This document shows, in pieces, positions 2,539 to 44,403 of a stretch of 64,000 bases of DNA. The DNA is taken from contig LBYD01000002.1 of NCBI GenBank assembly GCA_000995965.1, forward strand, positions 7,889-71,888. The letters run 5' to 3'. The position numbers and the translations under genes are program-made. Each line of letters begins with the position of its first letter. The stretch's first letter is position 1. The stretch is from Candidatus Moranbacteria bacterium GW2011_GWC2_40_12 (GTDB lineage Bacteria > Patescibacteriota > Minisyncoccia > Moranbacterales > UBA11712). The notes under the pieces were generated by a model that did no database searches, was not told the origin of the DNA, and saw only the letters and a program-made list of their open reading frames with translations.

Positions 2539-3282
2539 ATGCGCAGGCTTCGGATAACTTTGATCCTGATCGCGCTTCCGCTTTTGACCGGAATATTTTT
2601 TGCAGTGTCGAAAAAAAAGCCGGAGACAATTCCCCTGCCTCCGGCTCAATCCTATAATTCCACCGCTTCATCCCAGACCCAAAGCCCGGCTCCGTCCGAA
2701 CCGGAGACCGCTCTTCCTGCCGAAGTGAATCTCGCCATTCCGTTCACTTCCCAAGCCCCGCACCAAAATTGGGACTTGCCCTATCAGCAATTTTGCGAAG
2801 AAGCATCAGTTTTGATGGCGGCCAGTTTCGTCAAAGGGGAAAATATTCTCGGCCCTGACGACTCGGATAAAAAAATGCTCGCCATCAAAGATTTCGAAGA
2901 AAAAAAATTCGGCTATTATGAAGATACGACCGCTGAAGAAACAGCCGTCATTCTGCGGGAAAATTTTGAACTTGCCAATGTGGAAGTTGTTTTCGATCCC
3001 ACATCCGAAAAAATCAAAAAAGCCCTGGCGGGGAGCAAGGCTGTGATTTTGCCTCTGGCCGGAAGAGAGATTGGAAACCCCAACTACCGCCAGCCCGGGC
3101 CGCTTTATCATATGCTGGTCGTGAAAGGCTATACGAAAAACGGCAACCTGATCACCAACGACCCGGGAACTAGGAAAGGCGCTGATTATGTTTATAAACC
3201 GGATGTGCTTCTGAACGCCATTCACGACTGGAACGGAGGAAACGTGGACGCGGGAAAAAAAGTTATGATCATCGTCGGCTAG
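2539..3282 (+). CDS. Membrane-anchored peptidase C39-like (YvpB-like) protein, paralog 1
   Basis: N-terminal TM helix; FTSQAP..W....CEEAS (Cys-box) and HMLVVKGY....ITNDP (His-box) resemble the C39-like peptidase domain; homologous to 4635-5378 and 58467-59252. Confidence 0.65.
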   Translation: MRRLRITLILIALPLLTGIFFAVSKKKPETIPLPPAQSYNSTASSQTQSPAPSEPETALPAEVNLAIPFTSQAPHQNWDLPYQQFCEEASVLMAASFVKGENILGPDDSDKKMLAIKDFEEKKFGYYEDTTAEETAVILRENFELANVEVVFDPTSEKIKKALAGSKAVILPLAGREIGNPNYRQPGPLYHMLVVKGYTKNGNLITNDPGTRKGADYVYKPDVLLNAIHDWNGGNVDAGKKVMIIVG

Positions 3283-3292
3283 GAATTTTTCA

Positions 3293-4609
3293 TCAGGCAA
3301 AAATCTTTCGCACGCGAAGCGGCAGAAGTATTCCAAGAATCAGAAGTTCGGCCGCGCTTCCCAGAAAAAAAGCAAAGGGCAAAGCGGACAGGCCATAGGA
3401 CTGGCTCAAAAAATATCCCCCGGGAATGGCAATGATGATTCCCAAGATGCTCACCGCGACTGGAATGGTCGTGTTTTTTGTCGCGTAGAAAGCTCTTGCC
3501 AATAGATGGACGAGGGCTTCGGTCGGAATGCTCAAGCAAAACATCCCCAGCGCGGCGGCGGTCCGGTCCACGTCGCCGGATTGAAATTCCCCGCCGCCGA
3601 GGAATATTCTGATGAGAGGCGCGCGAATAATATAAATCGCTATGGCAGCCAGAAAGCTCCCGAAAAAAATCAAAAGCGATGATCTTTTGAGTATTTTCCA
3701 AAATTTGTCCTTCGTTTTTTCATTGGCCGCGCCTGCCAAAAGAGGAAAACTGGTCGTCGCGATGGTTATGCCGATGAGACTGATGGGAACACTTTGAAAG
3801 TTGCGGGCAAAACTGATCACCGCCACCGAACCAGCCGCCAAGGTGGAAGCAATGGCCGTGAAACCCCAAAAAGTCGCCAGTTCAATCGGGTGCCCGAACA
3901 TTTTCGGAATCATAAGCCGGATAGTTTTGCGAAATTCCGGCGTGCGGAAGGCAAAAAACGCCTGGAAGCGAAATCCGCTCCGCCAGACGTCGGCTATTCT
4001 CGCCAAAAGATGCAAAGCCGCTCCAAAAAGTGTCCCGATTGCCACGCCCATTATCCCAAAGCGGGGAGCAAGAAGCAGTGTGCCGGCGATTATGCCGAGA
4101 TTATAGAGAACCGGCGAAAGGCCGTAGAAAAGAAATCTTCTTTTTGTGATCAGCATCGCGCCGAGCGCATTCGAAGCCGCGAAAAAAATGGGAGAAAAAG
4201 CGAGAACACGAAGAATTTTCACTACCAGTTGCCGGTCTTCCGCGCCAAAACCGGGGGCGACGATTGCGCTGATGGATCCCGCGAAAATGATGATGGCTGC
4301 CGCAGCCAAAAGCATTGTTCCCGTTGCGGATGTGATTATCGAATTCACGTATTCCTCCGCTCTTTTTTTGTCGGAACTCAAAAGTCCGTTCAGGATCGGA
4401 ACAAAAGCCGCGGCAATCCCGCTCGCGATGAGAATATTGAACAATAGGTCGGGAAAAAGAAACGCCGCGTTATAGGCATCGAGAGATCGCGACGCCCCGA
4501 ACGTCTGGGCGAAAAAATGGTCCCGCGCCAGCCCTAAAACGTATGAGGCAAAACTTGTTGCCGCAAGCACAACACTCCCTTTCGGAACAATTTTGAGCAT
4601 TTTTTTCAT
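3293..4609 (-). CDS. murJ: MurJ/MviN-like lipid II flippase (MOP superfamily), short form
   Basis: N-terminal ...LGLARDHFFAQTFGASRSLDAYNAAFLFPDLLF...AFVPIL matches the MurJ N-terminus; polytopic. At 438 aa it is shorter than canonical MurJ. Confidence 0.6.
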   Translation of the reverse strand: MKKMLKIVPKGSVVLAATSFASYVLGLARDHFFAQTFGASRSLDAYNAAFLFPDLLFNILIASGIAAAFVPILNGLLSSDKKRAEEYVNSIITSATGTMLLAAAAIIIFAGSISAIVAPGFGAEDRQLVVKILRVLAFSPIFFAASNALGAMLITKRRFLFYGLSPVLYNLGIIAGTLLLAPRFGIMGVAIGTLFGAALHLLARIADVWRSGFRFQAFFAFRTPEFRKTIRLMIPKMFGHPIELATFWGFTAIASTLAAGSVAVISFARNFQSVPISLIGITIATTSFPLLAGAANEKTKDKFWKILKRSSLLIFFGSFLAAIAIYIIRAPLIRIFLGGGEFQSGDVDRTAAALGMFCLSIPTEALVHLLARAFYATKNTTIPVAVSILGIIIAIPGGYFLSQSYGLSALPFAFFLGSAAELLILGILLPLRVRKIFA

Positions 4610-4634: not shown

Positions 4635-5378
4635 TCATTTTTCCACCACGATCATTGATGTTTTTCTTTCTGGAAATTTTTCGTGAAGCCCGGTGGGATA
4701 ATCTTCCAGAGATTTCTCGAGAATTTCGTATCCATAGCGATAACTCTTCCCGCGGCTGGTTCCGGGATCATGGGTAATGAATTCCCGCGCGGCGTCATCA
4801 TACCCGATGATCACGATCTTGTGGTTGGTCGGCCCGGGAGGCTCATAATTTGGATTGCCTATTGTTGCCCCGTTTATCGGAACGATCACCGGTTTGCCGG
4901 CGGCCAATTCTTTTTTTATGTCTTCGGTCCCGATGTCTTCGACAAGACGCGCTTTGAAATATTTGAAATATTCGTTGAGCAGATGGAGCGTGTCGGCATT
5001 CGACAAATCATGAAAATGCCCGTGCGCTTCGAGATGATAGTCCGACATGTTTTGTATTTCCCTTGCAGCCGCTTCGGGAGAAATGCTCTCGCCCCTGGCC
5101 CAGGCCATCACCATAAGAAGAGAAGCCTCCTCGCATCCGTTTTGTTCCCGGACGTCCTGCCAATTCCCCAGGGGTGCTTGAGAAGTGAACGGGACTTCGA
5201 GCATGATTTTTTCCGGCAGTGCCAATTCGGCCTTTTCAGCTTTTTCGCCGATTCGGCTTTGGAGATTATCCTTTCTTGCGATTGGGACGGAATACTTTTT
5301 TGAAAAATAAAAACCGGCTCCGGCAAGTATCAATACAAAAGGGAACGCGGCGGCAAAAATGTATTTTTTCTTCTTCAT
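4635..5378 (-). CDS. Membrane-anchored peptidase C39-like (YvpB-like) protein, paralog 2
   Basis: VPFTSQAPLGNW....CEEAS and HKIVIIGYDD....ITHDP boxes; N-terminal TM helix. Confidence 0.65.
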   Translation of the reverse strand: MKKKKYIFAAAFPFVLILAGAGFYFSKKYSVPIARKDNLQSRIGEKAEKAELALPEKIMLEVPFTSQAPLGNWQDVREQNGCEEASLLMVMAWARGESISPEAAAREIQNMSDYHLEAHGHFHDLSNADTLHLLNEYFKYFKARLVEDIGTEDIKKELAAGKPVIVPINGATIGNPNYEPPGPTNHKIVIIGYDDAAREFITHDPGTSRGKSYRYGYEILEKSLEDYPTGLHEKFPERKTSMIVVEK

Positions 5379-12051: not shown

Positions 12052-12225
12052 TCATTTTTTGCTCCGAGCGTCTTTGATAAGCAATCCGCCCTTGACCCGT
12101 TGGATGGCCAGCTTCTGCCGCTCCCGCCAGCCGAGATCGCGGATGTGTTCTTTGGGCAGGACTACATACATACTCCCCCGCCCGGTTTTGGTGAGTTTTC
12201 TCACAACTTTTTCTTTTTTCGCCAT
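12052..12225 (-). CDS. AbrB/MazE/SpoVT-like small DNA-binding protein (57 aa), copy 1
   Basis: Manual translation (below the ORF-track size cutoff): MAKKEKVVRKLTKTGRGSMYVVLPKEHIRDLGWRERQKLAIQRVKGGLLIKDARSKK, which resembles the swapped-hairpin AbrB/SpoVT fold pattern. Confidence 0.55.
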   Translation of the reverse strand: MAKKEKVVRKLTKTGRGSMYVVLPKEHIRDLGWRERQKLAIQRVKGGLLIKDARSKK

Positions 12226-12251
12226 CGCTTTGCTTCTATATTTTTATTAAG

Positions 12252-12271
12252 TAACGTAGATCGCTACGTTA
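12252..12271. promoter_or_regulatory. Perfect palindrome TAACGTAGATCGCTACGTTA in the 5' region of the abrB-like gene (candidate auto-operator)
   Basis: 10-bp arms, 27 nt upstream of the minus-strand ATG; copy 2 at 16459-16478. Confidence 0.5.
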
Positions 12272-12414
12272 CCCATTTTATACCGCATAGCGTAAATCGG
12301 ACAAATGAAAATTGGGGTTGCTTTCCTCCTCGCGGTTTTTTTGTTTTGGAGTATAATAGAAATGACCCAAAAAACAGGAGGGAGGATCTGTTTTTTTGGT
12401 TAATCCCAAAATAT

Positions 12415-14238
12415 ATGCCCACCAAAACAACGCGCTACCGGAAATATTCTTTCCCCATCGCCTACGCCGGGATTTGCCCCGAAAAAGACGGTTTTTTTGC
12501 TGCTGTCCAAAACGGGAAAAAAGTTTCTGCGATTGAATTTGTGAAGTGCCCGACCAAAAAAATTGACCAGAAAATTTTCTCCTGGCTCCAGAAATTTGCC
12601 GCTAGAAATGAAATAAAAATCGTCGGCTGCGGACTGGCGATTGAAGAAGCTTCCAAAAAAATTGACGAGCTTACTTCCGACCTTTGGCTCAAGCAGGACA
12701 TCGTGCCCTATGTTTTCAACATCCAGTCAAAGAACTCGAAAAAGAAAGCGCGAAGCGCCGCCGCCGAAGTGGCAAAAAGATTCGGGCATGACCACATCGT
12801 TGATGTTTCTTTCGATCCGGAGCGGCGAGTCCGCACGGTGCGCCTGGCAAGCCTCGACGATTTCCGAAGAACAATCGGACGGGATGATTTTCAGGAACTT
12901 CGAAATTTGGCTGAAAAATTCAAGGCGCAGGAAGGAAGACTCTATTTTTTCAGCTCTACTCCCCGCGGAGGCGGAGTGGCCATCATGCGCCATGCTATAA
13001 TCAGGCTTTTTCGCCTTCTCGGAATTGACGCCAATTGGTATGTTTTGAGCTCAAAAAGAGAGGTTTTCGGAGTCACAAAGAGAAAAATTCACAATGTCCT
13101 TCAAAATGTGGCTCCGCCCGACACAAAATTTGCCTCGCGGGACAAAAAAATTCTTTCCGAGTGGTCGAAAAAGAACGCAAGGAATTTCGAACCGATATTC
13201 AAAAGAGCCAAAGTGATTGCCATTGATGATTACCAGCCCTCGGGAATGATTCCCTGTATCAAAAAAATAAATCCGAAAGCCAAAATTATCTACCGCTCCC
13301 ATATCCAGATTGAGGCCAGCCTGATAAAGAAAAAAGACACTATCCAAAGCGAAGTCTGGGGGCATCTTTGGAAAAATATCCGCTTCGCCGATGTTTTTGT
13401 GAGCCACCCGATTGAAAAATTCATTCCCTCGAACGTCCCCCGCCAGAAAACCGTCCTTATGGCCCCCTCGACCGACAAGTTGGACGGCCTCAACAAAAAA
13501 CTTTCACCAAGCCAGCTGAAATTCTATATCAATCTTTTCAATAAACAGTCTTTAGGCTCTCCGCTCGACATGAAAAGACCCTACGTCATCCAGATCGCCC
13601 GCTTTGACCCGTCAAAAGGAATTCAGGACGTCATTGAATCATACCGCAAACTCCGCAAAAAACTCGATGCCGCAAAAATTCCCAAAAAAAATATCCCCCA
13701 GCTCGTGATCGCCGGACACGGCTCGGTTGACGACCCGGAGGGAGATTTCATTTTCACTTCCACTCTGAATCTTCTTGAGATGGATACCTACAAAGATATT
13801 TCCCCTGACATCAAAGTTGCCAAAGTCCCTCATAGCGATCAGATTTTGAACGCGCTCCTCAGCGAAAGCCTCATCGTCCTTCAGCTTTCCCATAAAGAAG
13901 GTTTTGAGTTCAAAGTGACGGAAGCGCTTCACAAGGGAAAGCCGGTGGTGGCCTACCGTACAGGAGGAATTCCGCTCCAAGTTGAACATGGCATCAGCGG
14001 GTATCTTGTTAAAACCGGAAACACCAACCAGGTTGCCCGATATTTGTTCAAGCTTCTAATAGACAAAAAGAAATATCTTGAAATGTCCCGAAACGCCAAA
14101 GATCATCTCAAAAAAGATTTTTTTACCGCATCAAGCGCCGCCAAGTGGCTTTTTCTTGCAACTGAGCTTTTGGAAAAAGGAAAAATCAAAGGCAACCGGA
14201 AATTGGTCCGGGATCTGATGGCTAAGGCAAAAAAATGA
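12415..14238 (+). CDS. GT-B fold glycosyltransferase (GT4-like) with ~130-aa N-terminal extension
   Basis: C-terminal EGFEFKVTEALHKGKPVV (E-G-F-G...E-A...G-x-P-V-V) motif and N-terminal GGGVAIMRH...G glycine-rich nucleotide-sugar binding region. Start chosen at the first Met after the abrB-like gene; the track ORF from 12100 overlaps that gene. Confidence 0.65.
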   Translation: MPTKTTRYRKYSFPIAYAGICPEKDGFFAAVQNGKKVSAIEFVKCPTKKIDQKIFSWLQKFAARNEIKIVGCGLAIEEASKKIDELTSDLWLKQDIVPYVFNIQSKNSKKKARSAAAEVAKRFGHDHIVDVSFDPERRVRTVRLASLDDFRRTIGRDDFQELRNLAEKFKAQEGRLYFFSSTPRGGGVAIMRHAIIRLFRLLGIDANWYVLSSKREVFGVTKRKIHNVLQNVAPPDTKFASRDKKILSEWSKKNARNFEPIFKRAKVIAIDDYQPSGMIPCIKKINPKAKIIYRSHIQIEASLIKKKDTIQSEVWGHLWKNIRFADVFVSHPIEKFIPSNVPRQKTVLMAPSTDKLDGLNKKLSPSQLKFYINLFNKQSLGSPLDMKRPYVIQIARFDPSKGIQDVIESYRKLRKKLDAAKIPKKNIPQLVIAGHGSVDDPEGDFIFTSTLNLLEMDTYKDISPDIKVAKVPHSDQILNALLSESLIVLQLSHKEGFEFKVTEALHKGKPVVAYRTGGIPLQVEHGISGYLVKTGNTNQVARYLFKLLIDKKKYLEMSRNAKDHLKKDFFTASSAAKWLFLATELLEKGKIKGNRKLVRDLMAKAKK

Positions 14239-22683: not shown

Positions 22684-23688
22684 TTATTTTGGTCCTTTGA
22701 GCATTATCGCAAGACCCTTTGCCGAATAGGCGCAACGGGGATTCGGCCATTCATCCGGATCGGGACAGCAGTCCTCGTCCATATGCCTGCCCTTTGTTTT
22801 GCTTTTGCGGGGATTGTCTTTTTTGTGGGCGCAAGTGGCGCCGGAGGTATAGCGGACTTTTGGGGCGGCGGCGGCTTTCTGGATGGCTTTTTTTGAAATT
22901 TGGGCAATACTTTGCGTTTCAACTTCCGCGAAATCAAGCGTTGAAACAACGTCATAGAATTCAGGAAAATTCCGTAGTATATCGATCTTTTTTCGGTCCT
23001 CAAAAATATTCGCGCTTCCTTCCTGGCGGGGAACAATATTGAAGGTATATCCGTTTTTCGTGAGGCTGTAGAAAAAAGTTTCTTCCCAGCAGGGATTATC
23101 GACTGAGACGTTTGCCTCTTTGGCCTGATAGGCTTTTTCTCCCAAGGTTATGTCATCGAAATGCGGGCATTTTTCTTCCGAAACATCTTCATTTTTCTTT
23201 TTCAAATTGTCCGTCCCGATTGGACCGGGAAATTTTGCGGCGCTATAAACAAAAACATCAAAACCCTTCACGCCGTCCGCGCTCGCAATGCCTTTTTCGT
23301 CGAAAGCTATTTTTTGAAGATAGCTTTCTCCTTTGGCGGCGGAGCTTTCGCGCGCGTTTTGCCAATTTTTTGGATACTTCAGGGAAACTCTGTATTTTTG
23401 ACTCTTATATGTTTTCCAATCGGCGGTCGGATCAGGAGCCGGGGCTAGGTTTACCGTGAGTCCGGAAAGGCGGCGAAATTCGTCTTCATAGGCGCTGTGG
23501 CGCTTTTTTTTTGCTTCGTTCAGATTTTCATAGCGGGCAAATTGGGCCAATAGCACGGCCAAAACGAAAGAAACACCTCCAATGGCGATAATCATCGAAA
23601 GGGCGGTGATATTTTCCCGTTTTATAAAATTAGGAAGATGTTTCTTTATTATTTTTTTCATTTTTGTATAATGTCTATAACATAACAC
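22684..23688 (-). CDS. membrane-anchored protein with conserved C-terminal Cys motif (family member A)
   Basis: N-terminal TM helix; C-terminus ...GATCAHKKDNPRKSKTKGRHMDEDCCPDPDEWPNPRCAYSAKGLAIMLKGPK shared with 31645-32244 and 43387-44403; body homologous to 43387-44403. Confidence 0.55.
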   Translation of the reverse strand: MLCYRHYTKMKKIIKKHLPNFIKRENITALSMIIAIGGVSFVLAVLLAQFARYENLNEAKKKRHSAYEDEFRRLSGLTVNLAPAPDPTADWKTYKSQKYRVSLKYPKNWQNARESSAAKGESYLQKIAFDEKGIASADGVKGFDVFVYSAAKFPGPIGTDNLKKKNEDVSEEKCPHFDDITLGEKAYQAKEANVSVDNPCWEETFFYSLTKNGYTFNIVPRQEGSANIFEDRKKIDILRNFPEFYDVVSTLDFAEVETQSIAQISKKAIQKAAAAPKVRYTSGATCAHKKDNPRKSKTKGRHMDEDCCPDPDEWPNPRCAYSAKGLAIMLKGPK

Positions 23689-24646: not shown

Positions 24647-25390
24647 TCAAATATCGACAACCATATCATCTTTTGCCGCGAAAGTATTTTTAAATATAAT
24701 CCTCGCCACTTTTTCGGCCCGGCGGCGGTCTTTGCCTGCCGTATATTTATTGGCCGCGAAGTGAGTCAGAAAAAGTTTTTTGCACTGCGCCTTTTTTGCA
24801 ATTCCGGCCGCTTCTTCGGGATTGGAATGCCCCCACTTCCCCGAGACAAATTTGGGCGCAGCCGCGCATTCATGAATCAAAATGTCGGCATTTCGGGCAA
24901 GACGGATTGAATTTCTTGAGACGCCGGTGTCCGAGCAATAGGCTACGGTTTTGCCATCCAAAGTTATTCTGTATCCAAAGGACGGGTCGATATGATAGAG
25001 CTTTTTATACTCGGAAGGAAAAGGAATTTCACGGCAATCTTTTGAAAGTTCTTTTATTTTCACGTTCAATTTCATTTCTCGAAAAGGCATCGCGTAGGGA
25101 TGGTCAATCACTTTCATAAGGTTCTTTTTCAATCCTTTTGGACAAGAAATATTGATTTCATTTTTGAATTTGAATTTGGGAAAGATATGAAAGCCGAAAA
25201 TATGATCCAGGTGTAAGTGACTCAAAAAAAGAAAAATTGGCTTTTTTGACTTTATGCGGGTTGGGAGCTTGTAGATCCCGTTTCCGGCATCAAAAATGAT
25301 ATAATATTTTTCGCTTTCAAGAAGAGCGCATACGGTGTTTCCTATTTTATTATCGTACCAGCCGTTTGTGCCGAGAAATGTCAGTTTCAT
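24647..25390 (-). CDS. MBL-fold metallo-hydrolase (RNase Z/BN-like)
   Basis: HLHLDH metal-binding motif. Confidence 0.75.
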   Translation of the reverse strand: MKLTFLGTNGWYDNKIGNTVCALLESEKYYIIFDAGNGIYKLPTRIKSKKPIFLFLSHLHLDHIFGFHIFPKFKFKNEINISCPKGLKKNLMKVIDHPYAMPFREMKLNVKIKELSKDCREIPFPSEYKKLYHIDPSFGYRITLDGKTVAYCSDTGVSRNSIRLARNADILIHECAAAPKFVSGKWGHSNPEEAAGIAKKAQCKKLFLTHFAANKYTAGKDRRRAEKVARIIFKNTFAAKDDMVVDI

Positions 25391-31644: not shown

Positions 31645-32244
31645 TTAGCGCAGTTTGAGCATTCGCGAAAGCTGCTCGGGAGTATAGTAGCAGTGCGGAT
31701 TGGGCCATTCGTCCGGATCGGGACAGCATTCCATATCCATATGCGGCTTGTCGTTTTTTTTGCTTTCGTGCGGCTTGTCGTTTTTCTTTTCGCAAACCCT
31801 TTTTCCATCCACTCTCTTGGTAGAGGCTTGGGGCACCGGCGCGGCTCGAAGCCGCGCCGCCTCCGCGGCGCGCGCCCTTGAAATTTTTTTCGCCCTCGCT
31901 GTTCTGATCGCCAAGCTTTTCACTGAATCAGCCGCGCCTGACATTGTATTAGAAACTTTCATTTCTTCTGCGAAATAATTATTTTTTGAAACTTCAGCAT
32001 CTTCGCTTTTCTGACTTTCTGCCGCAAGAACTTTTTCAGCGATTATTCCATCAGACTTGCTGCCCGGCGCACTCTGCTTCGCGCCTAGCCTATAATCAAA
32101 CAAGATTTTCCCGCTAGAAAAAAAAGAGATTCCAAAAGCTGCGGCACAAAGCAAAACCAGCAGCATCGTTTCGGCGCTTTCCGGATCGAATTCAACTTTT
32201 TGGAACAAATCCAGCCTTATTTTTCCCAATTTTTTCAGTTGCAT
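31645..32244 (-). CDS. membrane-anchored protein with conserved C-terminal Cys motif (family member B, short form)
   Basis: C-terminus ...KRVCEKKNDKPHESKKNDKPHMDMECCPDPDEWPNPHCYYTPEQLSRMLKLR; contains an 8-aa tandem duplication (KKNDKPHE/KKNDKPHM). Confidence 0.5.
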   Translation of the reverse strand: MQLKKLGKIRLDLFQKVEFDPESAETMLLVLLCAAAFGISFFSSGKILFDYRLGAKQSAPGSKSDGIIAEKVLAAESQKSEDAEVSKNNYFAEEMKVSNTMSGAADSVKSLAIRTARAKKISRARAAEAARLRAAPVPQASTKRVDGKRVCEKKNDKPHESKKNDKPHMDMECCPDPDEWPNPHCYYTPEQLSRMLKLR

Positions 32245-32388
32245 ATTTTCGGCGATTTTGGATAAATTATATCAAAAAAACAGTCACTTGTGCAAAACAT
32301 TCTCTTTTTAAAATATTTTCACTACAATAGAAAATTCGCTACAATATATAGCAGCGAATAAAAAATTGGAGAAATATCCTGTTGAATT

Positions 32389-34614
32389 TTATTTCCTATA
32401 AATCCGCAAACTGTTCGCCACGACTGAAACGGAACTCGCCGCCATAGCGAGGGCAGCAATGATGGGATTCAGAAACCCGGCCATCGCCAGCGGAATGGCA
32501 AGAATATTATAGCCGAAAGCCCAAAAAAGATTCTGCCGAATTGTTTTGAAAGTCAGCTTTGACAAATTTATCGCTTCAACCACCTTATTCAAATTATTTT
32601 GCACTAAAATAATCTGCCCGGCTTCTTTGGCAATGTCTTGGGCCGAACCCATCGCGATTCCGAGATCAGCTTGGACAAGACTTGGCGCGTCATTGATTCC
32701 ATCCCCCACAAAAACAACTTTTTCACCTTTTTCTTGAAGCCGCTTTATTTCAATCGCTTTTTCTGAAGGCAGGACTTCGGCCAAAATATTTTTGATTCCA
32801 AGTTCCTGCGCGATATATTTGGCCGTTTTTTGGTTGTCCCCTGTGATCATCGCAATTTTGAGCCCTAATCCAATCAATTTGTTGATCACTTCTTTGGCCT
32901 CGTTCCGCAATTCGTCAGAAACGACAATTGCCCCAATTATCTTTTCTCCATGGGCGACGAAAAGCGTTGTCCCGACAATATTCTCGTCTCCGGCCGTCAT
33001 TTTCTTCGTCCACTGTAAATCCAAATTATTTTCCTGGAGAAATTTTGTATTTCCCAAAAATAATTTTGTATTGTGTTCACGGCACTTACCTCTTATTCCC
33101 CGTCCCCTTTCTTCTTTAAAATCAATAACCTCGGCGAGTTCAATCTTTTTTTCCTTTGTATATTCATTAATCGCTCTTGAAAGAGGATGCTCCGAGTTTT
33201 TTGCAAGACTCGCGGCAATTTTCAGGATTTTTTCTTCTGAAAAATCATGCGCAGGATTGGCAACAATTTTTTCAACCTCCGGCTTTCCCTTTGTCAGGGT
33301 GCCTGTTTTGTCAAAAACAACCGTTGAAATATCTTTCACCCGCTCAAAACTTTCCCCGTTTTTGAAAAGAATTCCGCTCCGCGCGCCACGTCCCGTCCCA
33401 ACCATGATCGCCGCCGGCGTCGCAAGCCCCAGCGCGCAGGGACAGGCAATCACAAGCACTGCCACAGCATTGATAATCGCCTCGGTAGAATCACCAACGG
33501 CGAGGAGCCAGGCTATAAACGTCAATACTGCCAGAATTATGACAACAGGCACGAAAAAACCCGATATCTTGTCCGCTAATTTCTGAATGGGCGCTTTTGA
33601 GCCTTGGGCCTCCTCGACGGTTTTTATAATTTGCGCGAGAACCGTGTTTTCTCCAATTTGCGTGACTTTTATTTTGAGAATGCCGTCCTGATTGAGCGTT
33701 GCCCCAAAGACCGAGGAATATTTTTTCTTCTCAATCGGTAGCGCTTCTCCCGTCAGCATTGATTCATCAACTTCCGATTCCCCCTCAACAACAACACCGT
33801 CCAAAGGAATCTTTTCTCCGGGGCGGACCGCGATCGTGTCACCGACTTTTATCTCAAAAATATTAACTTCTTTTTCTTTGCCATCGAATAAAAGCCGCGC
33901 TTTTTTCACTCCCAGCTCCAAAAGTTTTCGCATCGCTTCTCCCGCTTGTCCGGTACTCTTCGCCTCGAAATATTTTCCAAGCAAAATGAAGGTGATTATG
34001 AGTGCGGCCGACTCAAGATAACCTTCTCTCCCGTTGAAAATGGCCCATAAACTGAAAAAATAGGCTGCGAGGGTTCCGAGCGATATCAGGGTATCCATAT
34101 TGGCCTGAAATTTTTTTACCTGTAAAAACGCCATCCGATGAAATCTCCGGCCAAACCAAAAAACAACAATCGTCGCCAGAACGAGATGCGACCACATCAC
34201 AAGATCAACGCCAAGCATATTTTTTCCAGCCCGGATTTGGTAAGCCATTTCCAAAACAAGCGGCATACTAAAAATGGCCGACCAAAGAAATGCCTGCCAA
34301 TTTTTTTTGATGTCCTCTCCGCCATGCTCATGACCAGCGTCTTCCCTGTCCATCATATGTTCATGCTCCATATTATGAGCTCCGTGTTTCAAAACATCTG
34401 GCTCATCCACCTTGTATCCATTCGCTATTATCACCTGTTTCACTGCTTCCTCGCTCAAAATATCCGGGTCGTATTCGACGTAGGCTTTTTTCACCGCGAA
34501 GTTCACCGACGCGTCCAAAATGCCTTTTGTTTTCAAAAGTTCTTTTTCGTTGTTTATGGCGCAAGAAACGCAGGACATGCCCGATATTCCAATTGTTATT
34601 TTTTTAGTATTCAT
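32389..34614 (-). CDS. copA: copper-translocating P1B-type ATPase
   Basis: N-terminal [11 protein letters not shown], His-rich loop, CPC ([11 protein letters not shown]), DKTGT and GDGINDAP motifs. Confidence 0.95.
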
Positions 34615-34917: not shown

Positions 34918-36090
34918 CTATTCGACTATAAATTTCCCCCTCACCATTCCCATTCCGCAGCTGAAAGGTATTTCACGAGTGTCGGTTGGCATGAAACTGA
35001 TTATATTCTCGCCGGAATTGATATTTTTCGCAATGTCGAGGCTGGGAATGATAATCTTATTCGTGCAGCCGCTTACTTGATCGCCCATTACAACCCAACT
35101 TACTGGAACATTTCCTTTGATTTTCAAAGCGCTTGGCTCAAAGCCGCGGTTGGTCACAGACATCCGGACAATTTGCTCATTTTGGATGAAAATCCTGTTT
35201 GAATTTTTCTTTGCCACGCTTTGCTCCCCATTCGTGGTGCCGCTGATTACATTCGTCCTCACACCCTTGAGCGCAAGGCCGGAGTTGAACATGAAAATCG
35301 CAAAAAGAATGACCAATATTCCTGCCGCTTTGTTCACAAAACTTATTTTTTTGGAGTTCGCCCATGATGCCGTTGCGCCAAGCATGAGAAGCACGGGCAT
35401 CGTCCCTATTGAAAAAATGGAAAGAATAAAAGCCCCGGTCCAAAAACTTCCCGAAGCGAGAGCAAAAATCTGCATGCTTTGCGTGAAACCGCAGGGAAGA
35501 AAAAAAGTGATCCCGCCGAGAAGATAGGGAGCGGCTTTATGCTCCGTGTCTTCGAGTCTGCCCCACCAGCGAAGCAAAAATTTCGGAGTTTTGATACCGA
35601 GCAAGGAAATCGAGGGTGCAATTCCCAAAATATTGAGCCCCAACCATCCCATTACGACTGCAATCAATATTGTGTAGATTGAAACAAAATTGCCGCTCAA
35701 ATTTATTTTTCCGCCGATAGCGCCCAAGAGTCCGCCCAAAGCAAAAAATGTCAAAACTCTGCCAACGTGAAATTTTATATTTGGCAAGAATGCTCCCTTG
35801 AAAAAATTGTCTCCTGATCCCGCTTTATACTTTTCCGAAAAAGCAATAACCATTCCTCCTACCACTGCCAGACACGAAGAAAGCGAGGCGGCCACGCCGA
35901 TCAAAAAAGAAACCCCCAAAGTCAATTTTTGGTCTTGGGCGCCAATGCCGCTGACAAGGCCAGCCGACTGAACCGTGCGGAACAAAAAAACTGAAATCGC
36001 TACGACAATGCCGGCTTTTATCCAGTCTTCCGGTTTTGAATTCGATTTTTCCATAATGTTAACCAATGCGTATTCATACGCTTTCCTCAT
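34918..36090 (-). CDS. TauE/SafE-like membrane permease fused to a C-terminal cupredoxin-like domain
   Basis: Polytopic N-terminus; C-terminal ...FEPSALKIKGNVPVSWVV...CTNKI...ISFMPTDTREIPFSCGMGMVRGKFIV resembles the Cupredoxin_1 domain (C...M.G pattern). Confidence 0.55.
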   Translation of the reverse strand: MRKAYEYALVNIMEKSNSKPEDWIKAGIVVAISVFLFRTVQSAGLVSGIGAQDQKLTLGVSFLIGVAASLSSCLAVVGGMVIAFSEKYKAGSGDNFFKGAFLPNIKFHVGRVLTFFALGGLLGAIGGKINLSGNFVSIYTILIAVVMGWLGLNILGIAPSISLLGIKTPKFLLRWWGRLEDTEHKAAPYLLGGITFFLPCGFTQSMQIFALASGSFWTGAFILSIFSIGTMPVLLMLGATASWANSKKISFVNKAAGILVILFAIFMFNSGLALKGVRTNVISGTTNGEQSVAKKNSNRIFIQNEQIVRMSVTNRGFEPSALKIKGNVPVSWVVMGDQVSGCTNKIIIPSLDIAKNINSGENIISFMPTDTREIPFSCGMGMVRGKFIVE

Positions 36091-38136: not shown

Positions 38137-38622
38137 ATGGAGGAACAGGTGGAGAAAAACGAAACTCCCGGGGAGTCGTCCAGCAACACGAATTACTGGA
38201 TCATTGTCATCGTCGCGCTGATTATGATTATTGGCATAATCTGGTATGCCGGCGCCAAGAAAAAAGTCGATCTTAATGAAGCGCCATCCTCGATACCCTC
38301 TCAAAATTCGCAGTCGACAAGCCAGTCAACGAGCGAAGTTCAAAAACAAACCGAAGCCGTTATTGAATACACTGATTCCGGCTTTTCGCCCCAGAGCGTA
38401 ACCGTCAAGATTAGCGACACCGTGGCATTCACCAACAACAGTTCCGGCGAAATGTGGGTCGCTTCCGCTCCGCACCCGGTTCACACAGATTATCCGGAAT
38501 TAGATGCCAAAAGGGCATACACCAAAGGTGAAACTTATTCCTTTACTTTCGAGAAAACAGGAACTTGGAAATTCCACAACCATCTCAACCCCACCAAGTT
38601 TGGTTCAGTAACTGTTCAATAA
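38137..38622 (+). CDS. membrane-anchored cupredoxin-like domain protein
   Basis: FSPQSVTVKISDTVAFTNNS...HP.H...GETYSFTFEKTGTWKFHNHLNP: a cupredoxin-like beta-sandwich pattern with His ligands. Confidence 0.5.
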   Translation: MEEQVEKNETPGESSSNTNYWIIVIVALIMIIGIIWYAGAKKKVDLNEAPSSIPSQNSQSTSQSTSEVQKQTEAVIEYTDSGFSPQSVTVKISDTVAFTNNSSGEMWVASAPHPVHTDYPELDAKRAYTKGETYSFTFEKTGTWKFHNHLNPTKFGSVTVQ

Positions 38623-38634
38623 AAGAAAAAAAAT

Positions 38635-38865
38635 ATGCCAAAAGTCCCAAACACCCCCAAAAACACAGGCAGATGTTTTTGCCTGAAGTGCCCCACTTTT
38701 CTCCAGTCGGATTGCCCGAAGGAGAAACAGGAAATATTATACTGCGCCAAGGGAAAATCTTCTTGCGATCTCGAGGAAAAAGGATGTCTTTGCGGCGCCT
38801 GCCCTGTGCATGAAGAGTATAACCTGGATGGCGGATATTTCTGCTTTCGCGGCGCGGCTGAATAG
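38635..38865 (+). CDS. DUF2769-like Cys-rich small protein
   Basis: CFCLKCPTF...C...YCAKGKSSC...GCLCGACPV matches the Cys spacing of the N-terminus of the adjacent GltS-like protein. Confidence 0.6.
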   Translation: MPKVPNTPKNTGRCFCLKCPTFLQSDCPKEKQEILYCAKGKSSCDLEEKGCLCGACPVHEEYNLDGGYFCFRGAAE

Positions 38866-38946: not shown

Positions 38947-40452
38947 TTACTTTTCTCCCAGCCACTTCACCCCGCAAATTTCCCCCAGATCCTTATTCAT
39001 CGCGACTAAATCCTCACTCGATAATTCATTCACGTCATTTTTTCCCAAAATTCTCGCAATTTCTGCTATTTCTTCGGTTGATATTTTGACAAAGTTTGAA
39101 AGTTTTCGAACGCCTTCTTTGATTTTCAATTGACTGGTCAACTCCGGCCGATGAGTCGTCACTCCTGTCGGGCAAAGTCCCGTGTGGCAAACGCGATACT
39201 GCTGGCAATTGATGGCGATGAGAGCGGCTGTCCCGATATAAACCGCATCCGCGCCCAGCGCCAGACATTTGGCAAAATCTGCTGAAATGCGGAGTCCGCC
39301 GGCCGCAATGAGAGAAATATTATTTTTTACTCCTAAATCTTTTAGCATTTTATATGCCCGGGGAACAGCGGCAAAAACCGGAATTCCGACATTATCTTTC
39401 ACGAATGCGTCCGTGGCTCCCGTTCCTCCGCCGAATCCGTCAATCGCGATGAAATCGACTCCGGCCTCGGCCAAAACTTTCACATCCTTCTCAACATTTC
39501 CGCAGCCGATTTTCGCGCCGACAGGAACGCCGCCCGTCATTTCGCGAAGCCACGCAACTTTATTTTTTATTTCCTCCAAAGTTTCCATATCATGATGATG
39601 CGCTGGTGAATAAGCCGGCTCACCAGTCTTGAGTCCCCGCAGATTCGCGACTTCCTCCGTCATTTTTTTGGCCGGCAGATAGCTTCCCTTCCCGGGATAG
39701 GCGCCTTGTCCGAAGCGGATTTCCACCGCCGCCACTTTTTTGATCACATCTTCATTCAATCCGAATCGCCCGGTCGCGTATTGTCCGATCAGAAATTCTT
39801 TCGATTCATATTCTTCATCGAGTATCCCCCCTTCTCCTGAATTGAAACCGATTTTCAGATATTTGGCCGCTTGCGAAATGACAAGATGCACATTTTTCGA
39901 AGTGGATCCGAAACTCATTCCCGAAATCATTATCGGGGAAGAAACTTTCATCGGCTTTTTGGCTTTCGGACCGATGGTAACTTCTGTGTTCACTTTTTCT
40001 TCCCGGTCGAGCGGAATTTTCGCCACTTGTGCGGGCATGAAATGCAAATTACCAAGTGAAAAATTGCAACCCGGTTTTTTGAGCGAACCCATCGGACGGA
40101 CAATTCTCTCCCCTGTTTCAGCCAGCGTTTTGATGTCAACGACGGTTTGATAAAATTCATCGCTCTCATTTGATTTCTTTTTCCGCATCACAACTTTTCC
40201 ACCAAAGGCGGATCCGCCTCGGCCGGAAGCTAGTTCTATTGTGTCCCGCGTGCAATAATATATTTCTTTGAGATTATTTTCCGACCAAACCAAACATCCC
40301 GGGCAAAGACAACTCTTAGCGCTGACATCACACTGACTGTGCCCTATTTCTTCAGAGCAATACAAAACTTCCCCATTGCAATCATGCGGATAAGAAGGAC
40401 AATTGGGACAAAGGCATTTTTGACGGTTTTCCTTGGAATTTTTGACCGGCAT
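38947..40452 (-). CDS. glutamate synthase domain-2-like FMN oxidoreductase with N-terminal DUF2769 Cys-rich domain
   Basis: N-terminal CLCPNCPSYPHDC...YCS...CLCPGCLV; core SGMSFGSTS, EGG, DGFGGGTGA and AAGGL...GADAVYIG motifs of the GltB FMN-binding domain. Confidence 0.8.
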   Translation of the reverse strand: MPVKNSKENRQKCLCPNCPSYPHDCNGEVLYCSEEIGHSQCDVSAKSCLCPGCLVWSENNLKEIYYCTRDTIELASGRGGSAFGGKVVMRKKKSNESDEFYQTVVDIKTLAETGERIVRPMGSLKKPGCNFSLGNLHFMPAQVAKIPLDREEKVNTEVTIGPKAKKPMKVSSPIMISGMSFGSTSKNVHLVISQAAKYLKIGFNSGEGGILDEEYESKEFLIGQYATGRFGLNEDVIKKVAAVEIRFGQGAYPGKGSYLPAKKMTEEVANLRGLKTGEPAYSPAHHHDMETLEEIKNKVAWLREMTGGVPVGAKIGCGNVEKDVKVLAEAGVDFIAIDGFGGGTGATDAFVKDNVGIPVFAAVPRAYKMLKDLGVKNNISLIAAGGLRISADFAKCLALGADAVYIGTAALIAINCQQYRVCHTGLCPTGVTTHRPELTSQLKIKEGVRKLSNFVKISTEEIAEIARILGKNDVNELSSEDLVAMNKDLGEICGVKWLGEK

Positions 40453-41445: not shown

Positions 41446-42693
41446 TTAGGCCTCTCCAGTCTGCCCGGCAGCAGCCAAATTTCTGACAGTATCGGCCGCC
41501 CAGGCAACCCACCCCTGGGACCAAACATGCAAATTTTCCTGCTTTTTGTCCATACTGGCCTTTTCCTCGCAATAGAGGCAGTTAGGCCCGCCGTCGATCT
41601 CGACCACGTCATAAGTGCCTTTGTAAAGATCGAGAGTAACGTGACCAGTAATGAAGCGCGCCGCGCTGGCAATCGCGGCTTGGAGCATCGCCGAGACGGG
41701 ATGGAAAAACTTCCCGCCATAAACCGCTTTGGCAAACATGCGGGAAGTGATGTCAAGATAGAGGCGACTCTCGTCGTCAATGATCACCCCAACCATTATC
41801 AGATATGCGATGAAAACCAGGGTCACTCCCGGAGATTCGTAGATTCCCCTGCTTTTGAGGCCAAGCACGCGGTTTTCAATCTGGTCGAGACCGATCCCAA
41901 TGGCATTTTCTCCGGCAATGGCGTTGAGAGTCAGAAAAATCTCCTCCAGATTCATTTCTACGTCGTTTACTGCCACGGGCCGCCCCGCCTTGAAAATGAT
42001 CTTCACTCGCGTTTTTTTGTCCGGGGCATCGAAGGGGCTATTACCCATGACAAACTTCACGGCACTCGTGGCCGTAGTGAGTTTTTCCAGAATTCCCGCC
42101 TCATGGGTCAGCCCGGCGAAATTGGCGTCGGTGGAATAGGGCTGTTCCAAGGTAGCGGAAATTACCAGGCCAAAGTTCTCGCAATAATGGATCATTTCCG
42201 GGCGACCGCCGAGTTCGTCAATGAAGCTCTGGTCCCGCCAAGGGACATACATCTCCAGATCGGGAGCGAGAGCCGCGAGGGCCAGCTCGAACCTGATCTG
42301 ATCATTGCCTTTGCCCGTGGAGCCATGGGATACCGCATCGGCACCCACTTTGCGAATAGTTGGCAAAGCTACTGCCACAGCTGCCATGCGGGCAATGGAG
42401 GTCGTCAGCATATAACGGCCATCGTAGCAGGCCAGGCCTTGGATAACCTTCAGCATATACTCTGCCAGCTTGGCTTTGCCGTCAATGAGATACGCCTCAA
42501 CCGCTCCTGCGGCCTTCATGCGCCGTGGAATATCCGAAAGGTCATTTTCATCCGGCTGGGCAAAATCCACCGTGATGGCGATGACCCGAATGCCTTTTTC
42601 GGTCATCCACTTGATTATGGCAGTACTGTCCAGCCCGCCCGATACCAAAACCGCAATGGTCTTTCCGACAAAATCTTTCCAAGTTTTAAACAT
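41446..42693 (-). CDS. argG: argininosuccinate synthase (core 416 aa; the open frame continues upstream to 43161)
   Basis: AVLVSGGLDST, GSTGKGNDQIRFE and GRYMLTTSIAR motifs; the in-frame 156-codon upstream extension is described under findings. Confidence 0.9.
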   Translation of the reverse strand: MFKTWKDFVGKTIAVLVSGGLDSTAIIKWMTEKGIRVIAITVDFAQPDENDLSDIPRRMKAAGAVEAYLIDGKAKLAEYMLKVIQGLACYDGRYMLTTSIARMAAVAVALPTIRKVGADAVSHGSTGKGNDQIRFELALAALAPDLEMYVPWRDQSFIDELGGRPEMIHYCENFGLVISATLEQPYSTDANFAGLTHEAGILEKLTTATSAVKFVMGNSPFDAPDKKTRVKIIFKAGRPVAVNDVEMNLEEIFLTLNAIAGENAIGIGLDQIENRVLGLKSRGIYESPGVTLVFIAYLIMVGVIIDDESRLYLDITSRMFAKAVYGGKFFHPVSAMLQAAIASAARFITGHVTLDLYKGTYDVVEIDGGPNCLYCEEKASMDKKQENLHVWSQGWVAWAADTVRNLAAAGQTGEA

Positions 42694-43386
42694 GACTGCC
42701 TCCTTTAGACAAGCTATCACCCCTCTCTGGGATGGCTTTCCGCAACTCTCTTTGTTGCTGAAATTCCAGTTAACGCTTTCTCCTGGGAAGTTTTTCGGAA
42801 ACCCGATCACTTGAACGCGACGAAGATTCCCGAAATCTTTTTCTTTATCAGCTTTCCTTACTTCGGTGGTGATGACGAATAGATCATCAAAGCCAATGTA
42901 GGCAACCTCGACCAAAGTATCCCCGTTCACATGACAAAGGACCGAACCCAGATCAAGAACGGGAATAATCACCACGGCAGTAATTCCCTTTTTGGCTAAG
43001 AAATCCTGGACTTTTATCTGGTTTTTTTCCAGGATATTCCGGGCCAACTGCTTCTCTCTGAAGGTCTTGTTTCTTCTTCCCAGTGGACCGAAATCGCGTG
43101 GAATTCCGCGACGTTTGAATTCCCGATTTATCTGCAAGCCTCCTCCGACGCAAATCACCACGTAATGTGTTTGAGATAGATCCCCGAGCTATTTGATAAC
43201 ATCCCGGCGAGTAACTAAATCGCCCGAGACTTTTACGAAAGCGGTTTTACGCATATTTGCAACCCCCTTATTCCCAGCCCGAAGCTGTATTTTATTGGTA
43301 AAGAAGTGGATACAAAATAGCGCAGATGCAAATATTTATCAAGAAAAAGGGGGCTTTGAGCCTGGATGTTTATTTTTGCGCATTGG

Positions 43387-44403
43387 CTAATAAGTGCACC
43401 AGGGATTCGGGTATTCGTCGGGATCAAGACAGCATTCCATATCGAGATGCTTCCCTTTGTTCTGCCGGCTCTTTCGCGGCTTGTCATTTTTCTTGGCGCA
43501 GACCAATTTGCCGCCCACAACTTTGAAAGACACTGGTTTTGGCGCGGTTATTTTGGGTTTGAGGGGCGCGGGTTTCGGTCTCACAATATCAATGAGCCCC
43601 AAAGTGGAGGCCGCGGCATAATACTGCGGGAAATTATCGTTGATAGCCAACCTGGGATCAGCTCCTTGCTGGGATTCTGCGCTGAGGACTGGAACAATAT
43701 TATAAATATATCGTTCTTTCACAATACTAAAAAACAAAGCGGGACCATAGCAGTCATCTGTTGGAGGAATATATATTTCTTCGGCGGGAAAATCATCAAC
43801 GTCGAACGCGTGGCCTTCGATATTTTGGCATCGCGCATCATTTTTCAGATCTTGATTTTTTAGAGTTGGATATTCTTCGGTATTCGATATCTCCTTCGTT
43901 TTCGGAACGTCATAAACAGCCACATCAAACCCAAGATAGGGATTCTCTCCAGCATCATTTTTTCTGAATTGATAGCGGGCCTCCCATTTCGATCCGGCCG
44001 ATTTTCTCTGGCTTTTTGGCGCGATCCATTCACCGGGATATTTCACAGAAAAACCCCAAAACTGGTTGCTGAAATCCTTCCAGCCGCCCAAGTCAGTTGA
44101 ATTTATTATCTTTTCAGCCTCCGCCGAAATATCCGTTTCTGTCATGATCGGATCCGGACTGCTGTCTCCGGCGACGACTCCCTCAGTCTCATCGGCGATT
44201 TTCACGGCGGCGGCCGGCATCCTTTCTCCGGCTGGGGCGCTTCGAAAATTTCGGGGCATATTTGAATATAAAAATGCCGCCGCAAAAAAAATGGCAGCTG
44301 ACACGACGACGATGTCCCTTTTTATGTTCGTCCGGCATGTCATTCCTCTGCAAAATATCGAGTTCCACTCCCTGAATGATTTTTTGAAATTTTCGATGGT
44401 CAT
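43387..44403 (-). CDS. membrane-anchored protein with conserved C-terminal Cys motif (family member C)
   Basis: C-terminus ...GGKLVCAKKNDKPRKSRQNKGKHLDMECCLDPDEYPNPWCTY; body homologous to 22684-23688 (e.g. GFDVAVYD, YIYNIVPVL, NFPQYYAAASTL blocks). Confidence 0.55.
   Translation of the reverse strand: MTIENFKKSFREWNSIFCRGMTCRTNIKRDIVVVSAAIFFAAAFLYSNMPRNFRSAPAGERMPAAAVKIADETEGVVAGDSSPDPIMTETDISAEAEKIINSTDLGGWKDFSNQFWGFSVKYPGEWIAPKSQRKSAGSKWEARYQFRKNDAGENPYLGFDVAVYDVPKTKEISNTEEYPTLKNQDLKNDARCQNIEGHAFDVDDFPAEEIYIPPTDDCYGPALFFSIVKERYIYNIVPVLSAESQQGADPRLAINDNFPQYYAAASTLGLIDIVRPKPAPLKPKITAPKPVSFKVVGGKLVCAKKNDKPRKSRQNKGKHLDMECCLDPDEYPNPWCTY

Follow-up and report, generated by a model that had tools for sequence, protein, structure and literature searches.

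A highly conserved four-cysteine C-terminal domain, not represented in Pfam or NCBIfam, on diverse membrane-anchored proteins of Candidatus Moranbacteria

The 64,000-nucleotide stretch of contig LBYD01000002.1 from Candidatus Moranbacteria bacterium GW2011_GWC2_40_12 that was analysed here, and which is called the window at its full length, encodes three proteins, named A, B and C in the following, that share a short cysteine-rich C-terminal domain, the tail. An earlier note on this DNA had described them as three minus-strand proteins with an N-terminal membrane anchor and a common C-terminal tail rich in Cys, His, Asp, Glu and Pro. The coordinates and the quoted tails are correct (open reading frames (ORFs) of 334, 199 and 338 aa), and anchor and tail were both recovered, by a hydropathy scan and by a tail hidden Markov model (HMM), respectively (Table 1). 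The hydropathy scan revealed one N-terminal hydrophobic helix in each of the three proteins and no second one. For A the product on record is a protein of 325 aa starting with the ATG at 23661 and not the 334-aa form, and this ATG is probably the start. B is a short form composed of linker and tail, as had been noted, and the tail is its sole conserved module. All three proteins bear the NCBI product name 'hypothetical protein [Candidatus Moranbacteria bacterium]', and identical copies of B and C are found on many metagenome contigs and on contig MFSI01000008.1 of an NCBI metagenome-assembled genome (MAG; GCA_001784895.1).

Table 1. Positions in the window of proteins A, B and C, their parts and the neighbouring copA region
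Feature	Position	Strand	Description or basis
Protein A	22684..23688	minus	anchored in the membrane at the N-terminus, ectodomain PsbP-like, tail with four Cys; longest ORF 334 aa
A, single transmembrane helix ALSMIIAIGGVSFVLAVLL	23548..23604	minus	K/R-rich N-terminus ahead, predicted N-in
A, extracytoplasmic body	22924..23433	minus	predicted PsbP/Mog1-like fold, two conserved Cys; Pfam, AlphaFold2, Foldseek
A, tail domain SGATCAHKKDNPRKSKTKGRHMDEDCCPDPDEWPNPRCAYSAKGLAIMLKGPK	22687..22845	minus	alignment, tail HMM, AlphaFold2
Protein B	31645..32244	minus	199 aa; anchor, ~100-aa linker without recognisable domain, tail
B, transmembrane helix	32110..32166	minus	hydropathy scan
B, tail domain GKRVCEKKNDKPHESKKNDKPHMDMECCPDPDEWPNPHCYYTPEQLSRMLKLR	31648..31806	minus	alignment, tail HMM
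Protein C	43387..44403	minus	338 aa; anchor, PsbP-like body, tail; terminates exactly at ...C-T-Y
C, transmembrane helix	44257..44313	minus	conserved FCxGMTC motif, predicted cytoplasmic, ahead of it
C, PsbP-like body	43552..44082	minus	homologous to A body; sequence comparison
C, tail domain GKLVCAKKNDKPRKSRQNKGKHLDMECCLDPDEYPNPWCTY	43390..43512	minus	alignment, tail HMM
copA, Cu P1B-type ATPase	32389..34614	minus	motifs HMA, CPC, SEHP; B follows directly downstream
copA-B spacer, terminator-like hairpin	32334-32359	minus	consensus match only
copA-B spacer, promoter-like site	32266-32294	minus	extended -10, TGCACA-17-TG-TATAAT; consensus match only

The tails of the three proteins follow the common pattern G-x2-V-C-x-KKNDKP-x-KS-x3-7-K-H-x-D-x-E-CC-x-DPDE-x-PNP-x-C-x-Y and have 20 invariant positions in their alignment. 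An HMM built from 85 tails matches A, B and C with E = 1e-25 to 2e-29, and no further copy was found in the window, the next best segment in six frames reaching only E = 0.55. This shows that the window has exactly three copies and that their similarity is not due to chance. The domain comprises ~45-55 residues and opens with G-x2-[VS]-C. The first Cys is followed by a Lys-rich stretch of variable length, x-K-K-N-D-[KH]-P-x-K-S-x3-7-K, with an invariant Ser and a nearly invariant Pro, and by a core of 20 residues without any indels, H-[ML]-D-[ME]-[ED]-C-C-[LP]-D-P-D-E-x-P-N-P-x-C-x-Y. Across the family the distance between the first Cys and the His is ~14-20 residues and includes indels, while the length from His to Tyr is fixed. 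In the 85 tails C, S, D, CC, D, P, E, C and Y are invariant, and P19, H28, D38, P41 and P43 (numbered along the 60 residues of the A tail) are conserved to at least 90% without being invariant. The motif described for the window is strongly conserved in the orthologues as well; the Cys-to-His gap had been given as 16-24 residues, and the positions given as P/L and W/Y vary more family-wide. In most members a short helix follows the core (KYGKYLK or G[LY]xIMLKGPKK), which is often amphipathic and basic; some members, like C, end at C-x-Y. The tail is hydrophilic and rich in Lys and Asp, and it contains neither the CxxC/CxxH knuckle typical of Zn sites nor a Met-rich motif.

The 20-codon cores of A, B and C show a nucleotide identity of 73-82%, and three to four of the identical residues are encoded by different codons. 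These synonymous differences show that conservation acts at the protein level, and a recent duplication, gene conversion or a repeat artefact was rejected because the paralogous tails differ at synonymous sites. Moreover, the tail is far better conserved than the protein bodies to which it is attached. Sequence identities were compared in four sets and amount overall to 0.64-0.86 for the tail and 0.24-0.57 for the body, with 0.84 versus 0.57 for the A orthologues, 0.86 versus 0.30 for the C-type members and 0.64 versus 0.24 across subtypes.

In an exhaustive search of 1.84 billion protein cluster representatives the tail profile retrieved 323 clusters at E<=1e-3, 308 of them at E<=1e-10, so that the family is tight and sharply delimited, with no halo of remote members. 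When the same profile was used in a word-indexed search, 21 short proteins were obtained. Furthermore, a pattern scan of one genome per species, covering 185,579 species, yielded 116 matching stretches and 94 confirmed copies, and 80 loci from ~70 assemblies were kept from it. Nearly all of these assemblies are labelled as Moranbacteria/Moraniibacteriota, Parcubacteria or Patescibacteria, and a genome carries several tail paralogues on differing bodies. The domain is confined essentially to one lineage of the candidate phyla radiation (CPR/Patescibacteria), Candidatus Moranbacteria. No phage-borne copies were found in the viral contigs of IMG/VR. Nineteen loci have odd labels, among them Bdellovibrionales, Micavibrio, Saccharibacteria, Gammaproteobacteria and Bathyarchaeia. 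As the neighbouring genes are ~50-95% identical to those of Moranbacteria loci at most of them, most of these MAGs (L009, L023, L029, L030, L039, L071 and others) are, judged from these neighbours, probably mislabelled. Six of the 19 share no neighbour with Moranbacteria loci or have one weak match. A group of longer proteins of 730-785 aa (L048, 7964-10192; L077, 7829-10183; P0128) presents the same tail on an Asn/Lys-rich body of ~600 aa, for which no Pfam match was obtained in P0128. They come from MAGs of low GC content (0.30-0.35) in which no neighbouring gene is shared with a Moranbacteria locus, and the tail may for this reason reach beyond Moranbacteria.

The architecture of the family members is uniform at both ends and diverse in between. 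In 83 of the 84 ORFs from the window and the genome loci a single N-terminal helix is combined with a tail of exactly four Cys, the exception being a truncated fragment, and the motif lies at most 40 residues from the C-terminus in 172 of 173 family proteins from the databases. The exception, P0060, consists of a signal peptide, the tail and 103 more residues past the motif. The bodies between anchor and tail are PsbP-like (A, C), unannotated regions of ~600 aa or a bare linker (B), or they are absent, as in the smallest members (e.g., P0014), in which a signal peptide of Sec-type, cleavable-type appearance, as read by eye, directly precedes the tail. That such diverse bodies carry the same tail points to a mobile, autonomous module. 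Among relatives of the A body all of the 31 proteins found have a recognisable tail, two of them with a substitution in the core motif, and no tail-less relatives, which would point to domain replacement, were found among them. Concerning topology, the count of Lys plus Arg is 3.5 before and 2.3 after the transmembrane helix, with the N-terminal side being richer in 119 proteins and the C-terminal side in 38. These positive charges ahead of the helix together with the signal-peptide mini-proteins predict an N-in/C-out topology, by which the tail would be extracytoplasmic. Between transmembrane helix and tail, 155 of 183 proteins have an even number of Cys, and in 120 proteins this number is exactly two.

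The body of B is unrelated to those of A and C. The latter two are homologous, as had been claimed, with 26% identity and E = 5e-16 over 179 aa; the ~250 aa to which this homology had been assigned are thus to be reduced to ~180 aa. Pfam PsbP_2 (PF18933) scores 16.6 bits for A and 14.6 bits for C with a cut-off of 27, and it matches 17 of 146 family members with a best E-value of 2e-6. The AlphaFold2 (AF2) model of A has a mean predicted local distance difference test score (pLDDT) of 82.9, and its top match in the PDB by Foldseek is CyanoP (2lnj; E = 2e-4, probability 1.00), with further matches to Tsi3 (4luq) and to plant PsbP (4rth/4rti). Judged from this model, the bodies of A and C are predicted to have the alpha-beta-alpha sandwich fold of PsbP/Mog1. 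The likeness to CyanoP/PsbP concerns the bodies of A and C only and is one at fold level; we know of no PsbP-like protein with such a tail. Immediately ahead of its transmembrane helix C furthermore has a juxtamembrane motif, W-N-x-I-F-C-x-G-M-[TV]-C-x-x-N-[IL]-K-R-D (44314-44370, minus strand), on the predicted cytoplasmic side. This motif is present in 14 of 268 family proteins, a sub-lineage of C relatives that includes the proteins of loci L027, L033, L036, L041, L047 and L052.

The tail itself is predicted to fold. The tail core (residues 301-330) reaches a pLDDT of ~91 in the AF2 model of full-length A and ~83 when the tail is modelled alone, and the predicted structure consists of small beta-bridges that flank the loop with the CC pair, plus the terminal helix. 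The comparison with known families was negative, the only signal being weak Kringle matches (see below). Pfam returned nothing significant for the tail, including no LDL-A match; NCBIfam gave no match either, with the full proteins searched to E<=1 and the tails to E<=10, its CTERM and metal-binding models included; neither HMA nor any other metal-binding model of Pfam or NCBIfam matched the family proteins or the tails; no relative of the tail was found among the PDB sequences at E<=10; structure searches gave no match for the tail; and literature searches with the motif strings and CPR-related topics returned no description of it, the strings being absent from ~8 million papers. The tail thus represents an undescribed domain family that has a model neither in Pfam nor in NCBIfam, for which no structure exists and which is not mentioned in the literature searched. 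This agrees with the earlier note, which had not recognised the motif from any characterised family: no known Pfam sorting or metal-binding domain matched, and the motif is retained in the orthologues.

In kind, the tail may be compared with the modular C-terminal handles of surface proteins. With the SLH, LysM, choline-binding/GW repeat and dockerin modules of Gram-positive bacteria it has a similar logic in common, i.e., it is short and autonomous, occurs in multiple copies per genome on unrelated bodies and outconserves its cargo. However, no similarity to these docking modules was found in sequence or fold, and the tail is present only once, as a unit of ~45 aa with four Cys that is located at the end opposite to the membrane anchor. 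The C-terminal signals of LPXTG/sortase, PEP-CTERM/exosortase, GlyGly-CTERM/rhombosortase and PGF-CTERM/archaeosortase and the C-terminal domain of the type IX secretion system are likewise C-terminal, lineage-restricted and attached to diverse cargo. In contrast to these signals, the tail lacks a transmembrane helix and a basic end, it has no NCBIfam/Pfam match, no processing gene was found linked to it within +/-10 kb in the 80 loci, and the prediction is that of a domain which is folded, hydrophilic and putatively Cys-stapled. Known C-terminal sorting signals were rejected, since no hydrophobic tail helix is present in 84 proteins and no NCBIfam model matches. The type IV pilins were rejected as well: the N-termini of A, B and C have no prepilin motif (G/F-x-x-x-E), and the tail has four Cys compared to the two of the pilin D-region. 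Finally, Cox17 has in common with the tail a vicinal CC pair close to further Cys that could be joined by a structural disulfide, and it is likewise small and located outside of the cytoplasm; the tail differs from it in having no twin Cx9C helices, and its copper context is not conserved.

The reading that we tentatively favour, at a confidence that stays a little below even, is that the tail is an autonomous extracytoplasmic binding knot stapled by disulfides. A, B and C would be single-pass membrane proteins with N-in/C-out topology that end in an autonomous mini-domain, and some family members would be secreted mini-proteins. The four Cys would form two disulfides, each Cys of the CC pair being bonded to one of the distal Cys, which is the simplest pattern for a CC pair placed in a hairpin loop. 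These disulfides may staple a small beta-hairpin-like knot that displays a rigid and exposed acidic loop with the invariant His, Asp, Asp, Asp and Glu and the Pro-Asn-Pro sequence. The knot might serve as a common binding handle for a cation and/or for one shared envelope or partner molecule, and domain shuffling may have attached this handle to the different ectodomains. The argument for one common ligand is that the loop is near-identical across paralogues with unrelated bodies. The predicted extracytoplasmic site, the even number of Cys in the ectodomains and the absence of a CxxC/CxxH knuckle speak for the disulfides. Moreover, CPR bacteria are reported to be enriched in an MdbA-like oxidoreductase with VKOR, which was counted for the disulfides as well (PMC6744442).

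Several points weigh against this reading. The disulfide pattern is an inference, the overall pLDDT of the tail-only model is just 72, and the statistic of the even Cys number is inflated by the shared ancestry of the PsbP-like bodies. Neither MdbA nor DsbA nor VKOR was found in the window or in ~1.2 Mb of Moranbacteria loci, although this search was crude (regular expressions, and a hand-typed DsbA sequence of E. coli as phmmer query), covered a small sample and was treated as uninformative. Anoxic groundwater is the habitat of many CPR bacteria, and thiols exported there could remain in the reduced form and act as metal ligands. Finally, no conserved neighbour gene is present in the 80 loci, and neither a partner nor a ligand was identified.

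Such a metal-binding role is the content of an alternative that we consider possible, if on the unlikely side. The tail would be an extracytoplasmic site for Cu(I) or Zn(II), with the CC pair and the invariant His, Asp/Glu binding the ion and with B acting together with CopA; the two outer Cys might perhaps close the loop as one disulfide. The invariant C, CC, C, H, D, D, D and E within a core of fixed length of 20 residues would fit such a site, and adjacent Cys are known to bind Cu(I) in Cox17, yet there is no Met-rich or CxxC motif and no match to any metal-binding model of Pfam or NCBIfam. The forms that consist only of signal peptide and tail are what is expected of a small chaperone, whereas several paralogues per genome on unrelated bodies would be odd for a metallochaperone. 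The three copies are spread over no more than 22 kb, and copA, a DsbD_2-cupredoxin fusion and a second cupredoxin-like gene belong to the same region. The earlier note had pointed out the neighbourhood of copA and had placed B directly upstream of it. In fact B lies downstream (3') of copA, both genes being on the minus strand with 144 bp between them (copA 34614->32389, B 32244->31645), and a terminator-like hairpin and a promoter-like site follow one another in the spacer, which suggests, judged from these consensus matches, that B is transcribed on its own. The direct adjacency is limited to the population of the window: in the close relative MFSH01000023.1 the order of C, copA and A is retained, but copA is not followed by B. 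B orthologues are located between DUF5684/trypsin and acylphosphatase genes, in L082 at a distance of 3.5 kb from copA.

Throughout the family, a CPC-type CopA is encoded within 10 kb at six loci only, i.e., in the window and at 5 of the 80 genome loci, and we read these six as one synteny block of the close relatives of the window; other P-type ATPases nearby are without the CPC motif. Clustering of 1,266 ORFs from 81 loci revealed no conserved neighbour gene within +/-10 kb and only lineage synteny, e.g., pyrH, Vut_1 and pyrE. As the copA adjacency is confined to close relatives, the association with copper is local synteny and not a property of the family, and copA is judged not to form a unit with B. 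An operon partnership with copA was rejected as a general link, because the adjacency is not conserved and terminator-like and promoter-like sites intervene. The association with a copper pump should therefore not enter the annotation.

The surroundings of copA form a copper/redox cluster. Directly upstream of copA a protein of 390 aa is encoded that fuses DsbD_2 (CcdA-like thiol-reductant transporter) to a weak Cupredoxin_1 match (34918-36090, minus strand), and ~3.5 kb farther upstream lies the gene of a second, membrane-anchored cupredoxin-like protein of 161 aa (38137-38622, plus strand).

The earlier note had also considered a recognition tag, and a classical sorting tag is unlikely in view of the absence of a hydrophobic helix and of a conserved neighbouring processing gene and in view of the layout of P0060. 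In a wider form this alternative says that the tail is recognised by a dedicated, as yet undescribed system for sorting, attachment or modification, whose genes would lie at other places of the Moranbacteria genomes, with the invariant Ser or the Cys residues as processing or attachment sites, and we regard it as clearly unlikely. The almost strictly C-terminal position speaks for it, yet P0060 carries the tail right after its signal peptide. The diverse cargos with several copies per genome and a conservation of the tail that exceeds by far that of the cargo bodies are in line with a tag, as is the lineage restriction, which is known from dedicated sorting systems; however, the tail does not match any NCBIfam CTERM model, has no hydrophobic helix with basic anchor as the signals of sortase, exosortase, rhombosortase and archaeosortase, and would be added to proteins that already have an N-terminal anchor. 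The invariant Ser within a basic stretch would be a suitable site for modification, whereas AF2 predicts a folded domain and not a linear signal. As candidate enzymes the window encodes two extracytoplasmic papain-like Peptidase_C39_2 peptidases, which are not linked to the tail genes, and, as said, no conserved neighbour gene was found in the 80 loci.

Highly improbable is the view that sees in the tail a remote and degenerate relative of a known extracellular module rich in disulfides, be it the Kringle core (NYCRNPD...PWCYT) or the LDL-A calcium cage (DCxDGSDE...C). The resemblance is one of the local motif: C-L-D-P-D-E-Y-P-N-P-W-C-T-Y of the tail recalls C-R-N-P-D-...-P-W-C-Y-T of the Kringle, both follow C-x-[DN]-P-D-...-P-W-C-x-[TY] and both stand in an extracellular Cys-rich setting. 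A few members indeed match Pfam Kringle (PF00051) weakly, with E = 0.006-0.11 and 13-14 bits, in the 'NYCRNPD...PWCYT' part of the model (positions 37-64; 37-62 for the match of 14 bits). These scores are far below the cut-off of 34.3, however, and hhalign gave a probability of 5% versus Kringle and of 0.2% versus LDL-A, both with hand-typed reference alignments. Furthermore, a Kringle has six Cys in ~80 residues, whereas the tail has four in ~35 and half the length. Homology to Kringle was rejected on the score of 14 bits, the hhalign result and the missing fold match, homology to the LDL-A calcium cage on the hhalign result, and at the level of detectable homology this alternative is effectively refuted.

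Finally, the tail could be an extracytoplasmic functional site of a new kind, specific to one CPR lineage, that acts either as a vicinal-dithiol module for Cu(I), Zn or redox reactions at the cell surface or as the docking tag of an undiscovered surface-attachment system. This we consider unlikely. If the docking option were true, Moranbacteria would display a set of ectodomains, possibly towards the host cell.

Some further genes of the window are worth recording. Two paralogous papain-like peptidases with N-terminal anchors are encoded at 2539-3282 (plus strand) and 4635-5378 (minus strand), with Peptidase_C39_2 matches of E = 1e-6 and 1e-15, and the 438-aa gene between them (3293-4609) is murJ-like as judged by eye from its sequence. 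A trehalose-synthase-like GT4 glycosyltransferase of 712 aa (12100-14238, plus strand; TreT_GT1 and Glycos_transf_1) has an unannotated N-terminal region of ~280 aa. A metallo-beta-lactamase-fold protein of 247 aa (24647-25390, minus strand) matches anti-Pycsar Apyc1 (PF23023) as well in the precomputed annotation and may be an RNase Z-like enzyme. The 501-aa protein at 38947-40452 (minus strand) is of the Glu_synthase/FMN-dehydrogenase type with a Cys-rich N-terminal DUF2769 (CLCPNCPSYPHDC...CLCPGC), and a separate small DUF2769 gene (~38565-38813) adjoins its gene. A protein of the argininosuccinate synthase family (41446-43161, minus strand) is unusually long with 571 aa and has an N-terminal extension of ~150 aa; it also gives a weak QueC match.

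CPR/Patescibacteria are uncultured and largely episymbiotic bacteria whose cell-surface biology is almost unknown. The finding overturns nothing unless the metal, redox or docking reading is true. A domain-family entry would bring together several hundred 'hypothetical proteins' under one description. The tail is a compact, extremely conserved and lineage-restricted unit, which in each genome is common to several surface proteins, and it may help to learn what is bound or sensed at the surface of Moranbacteria.

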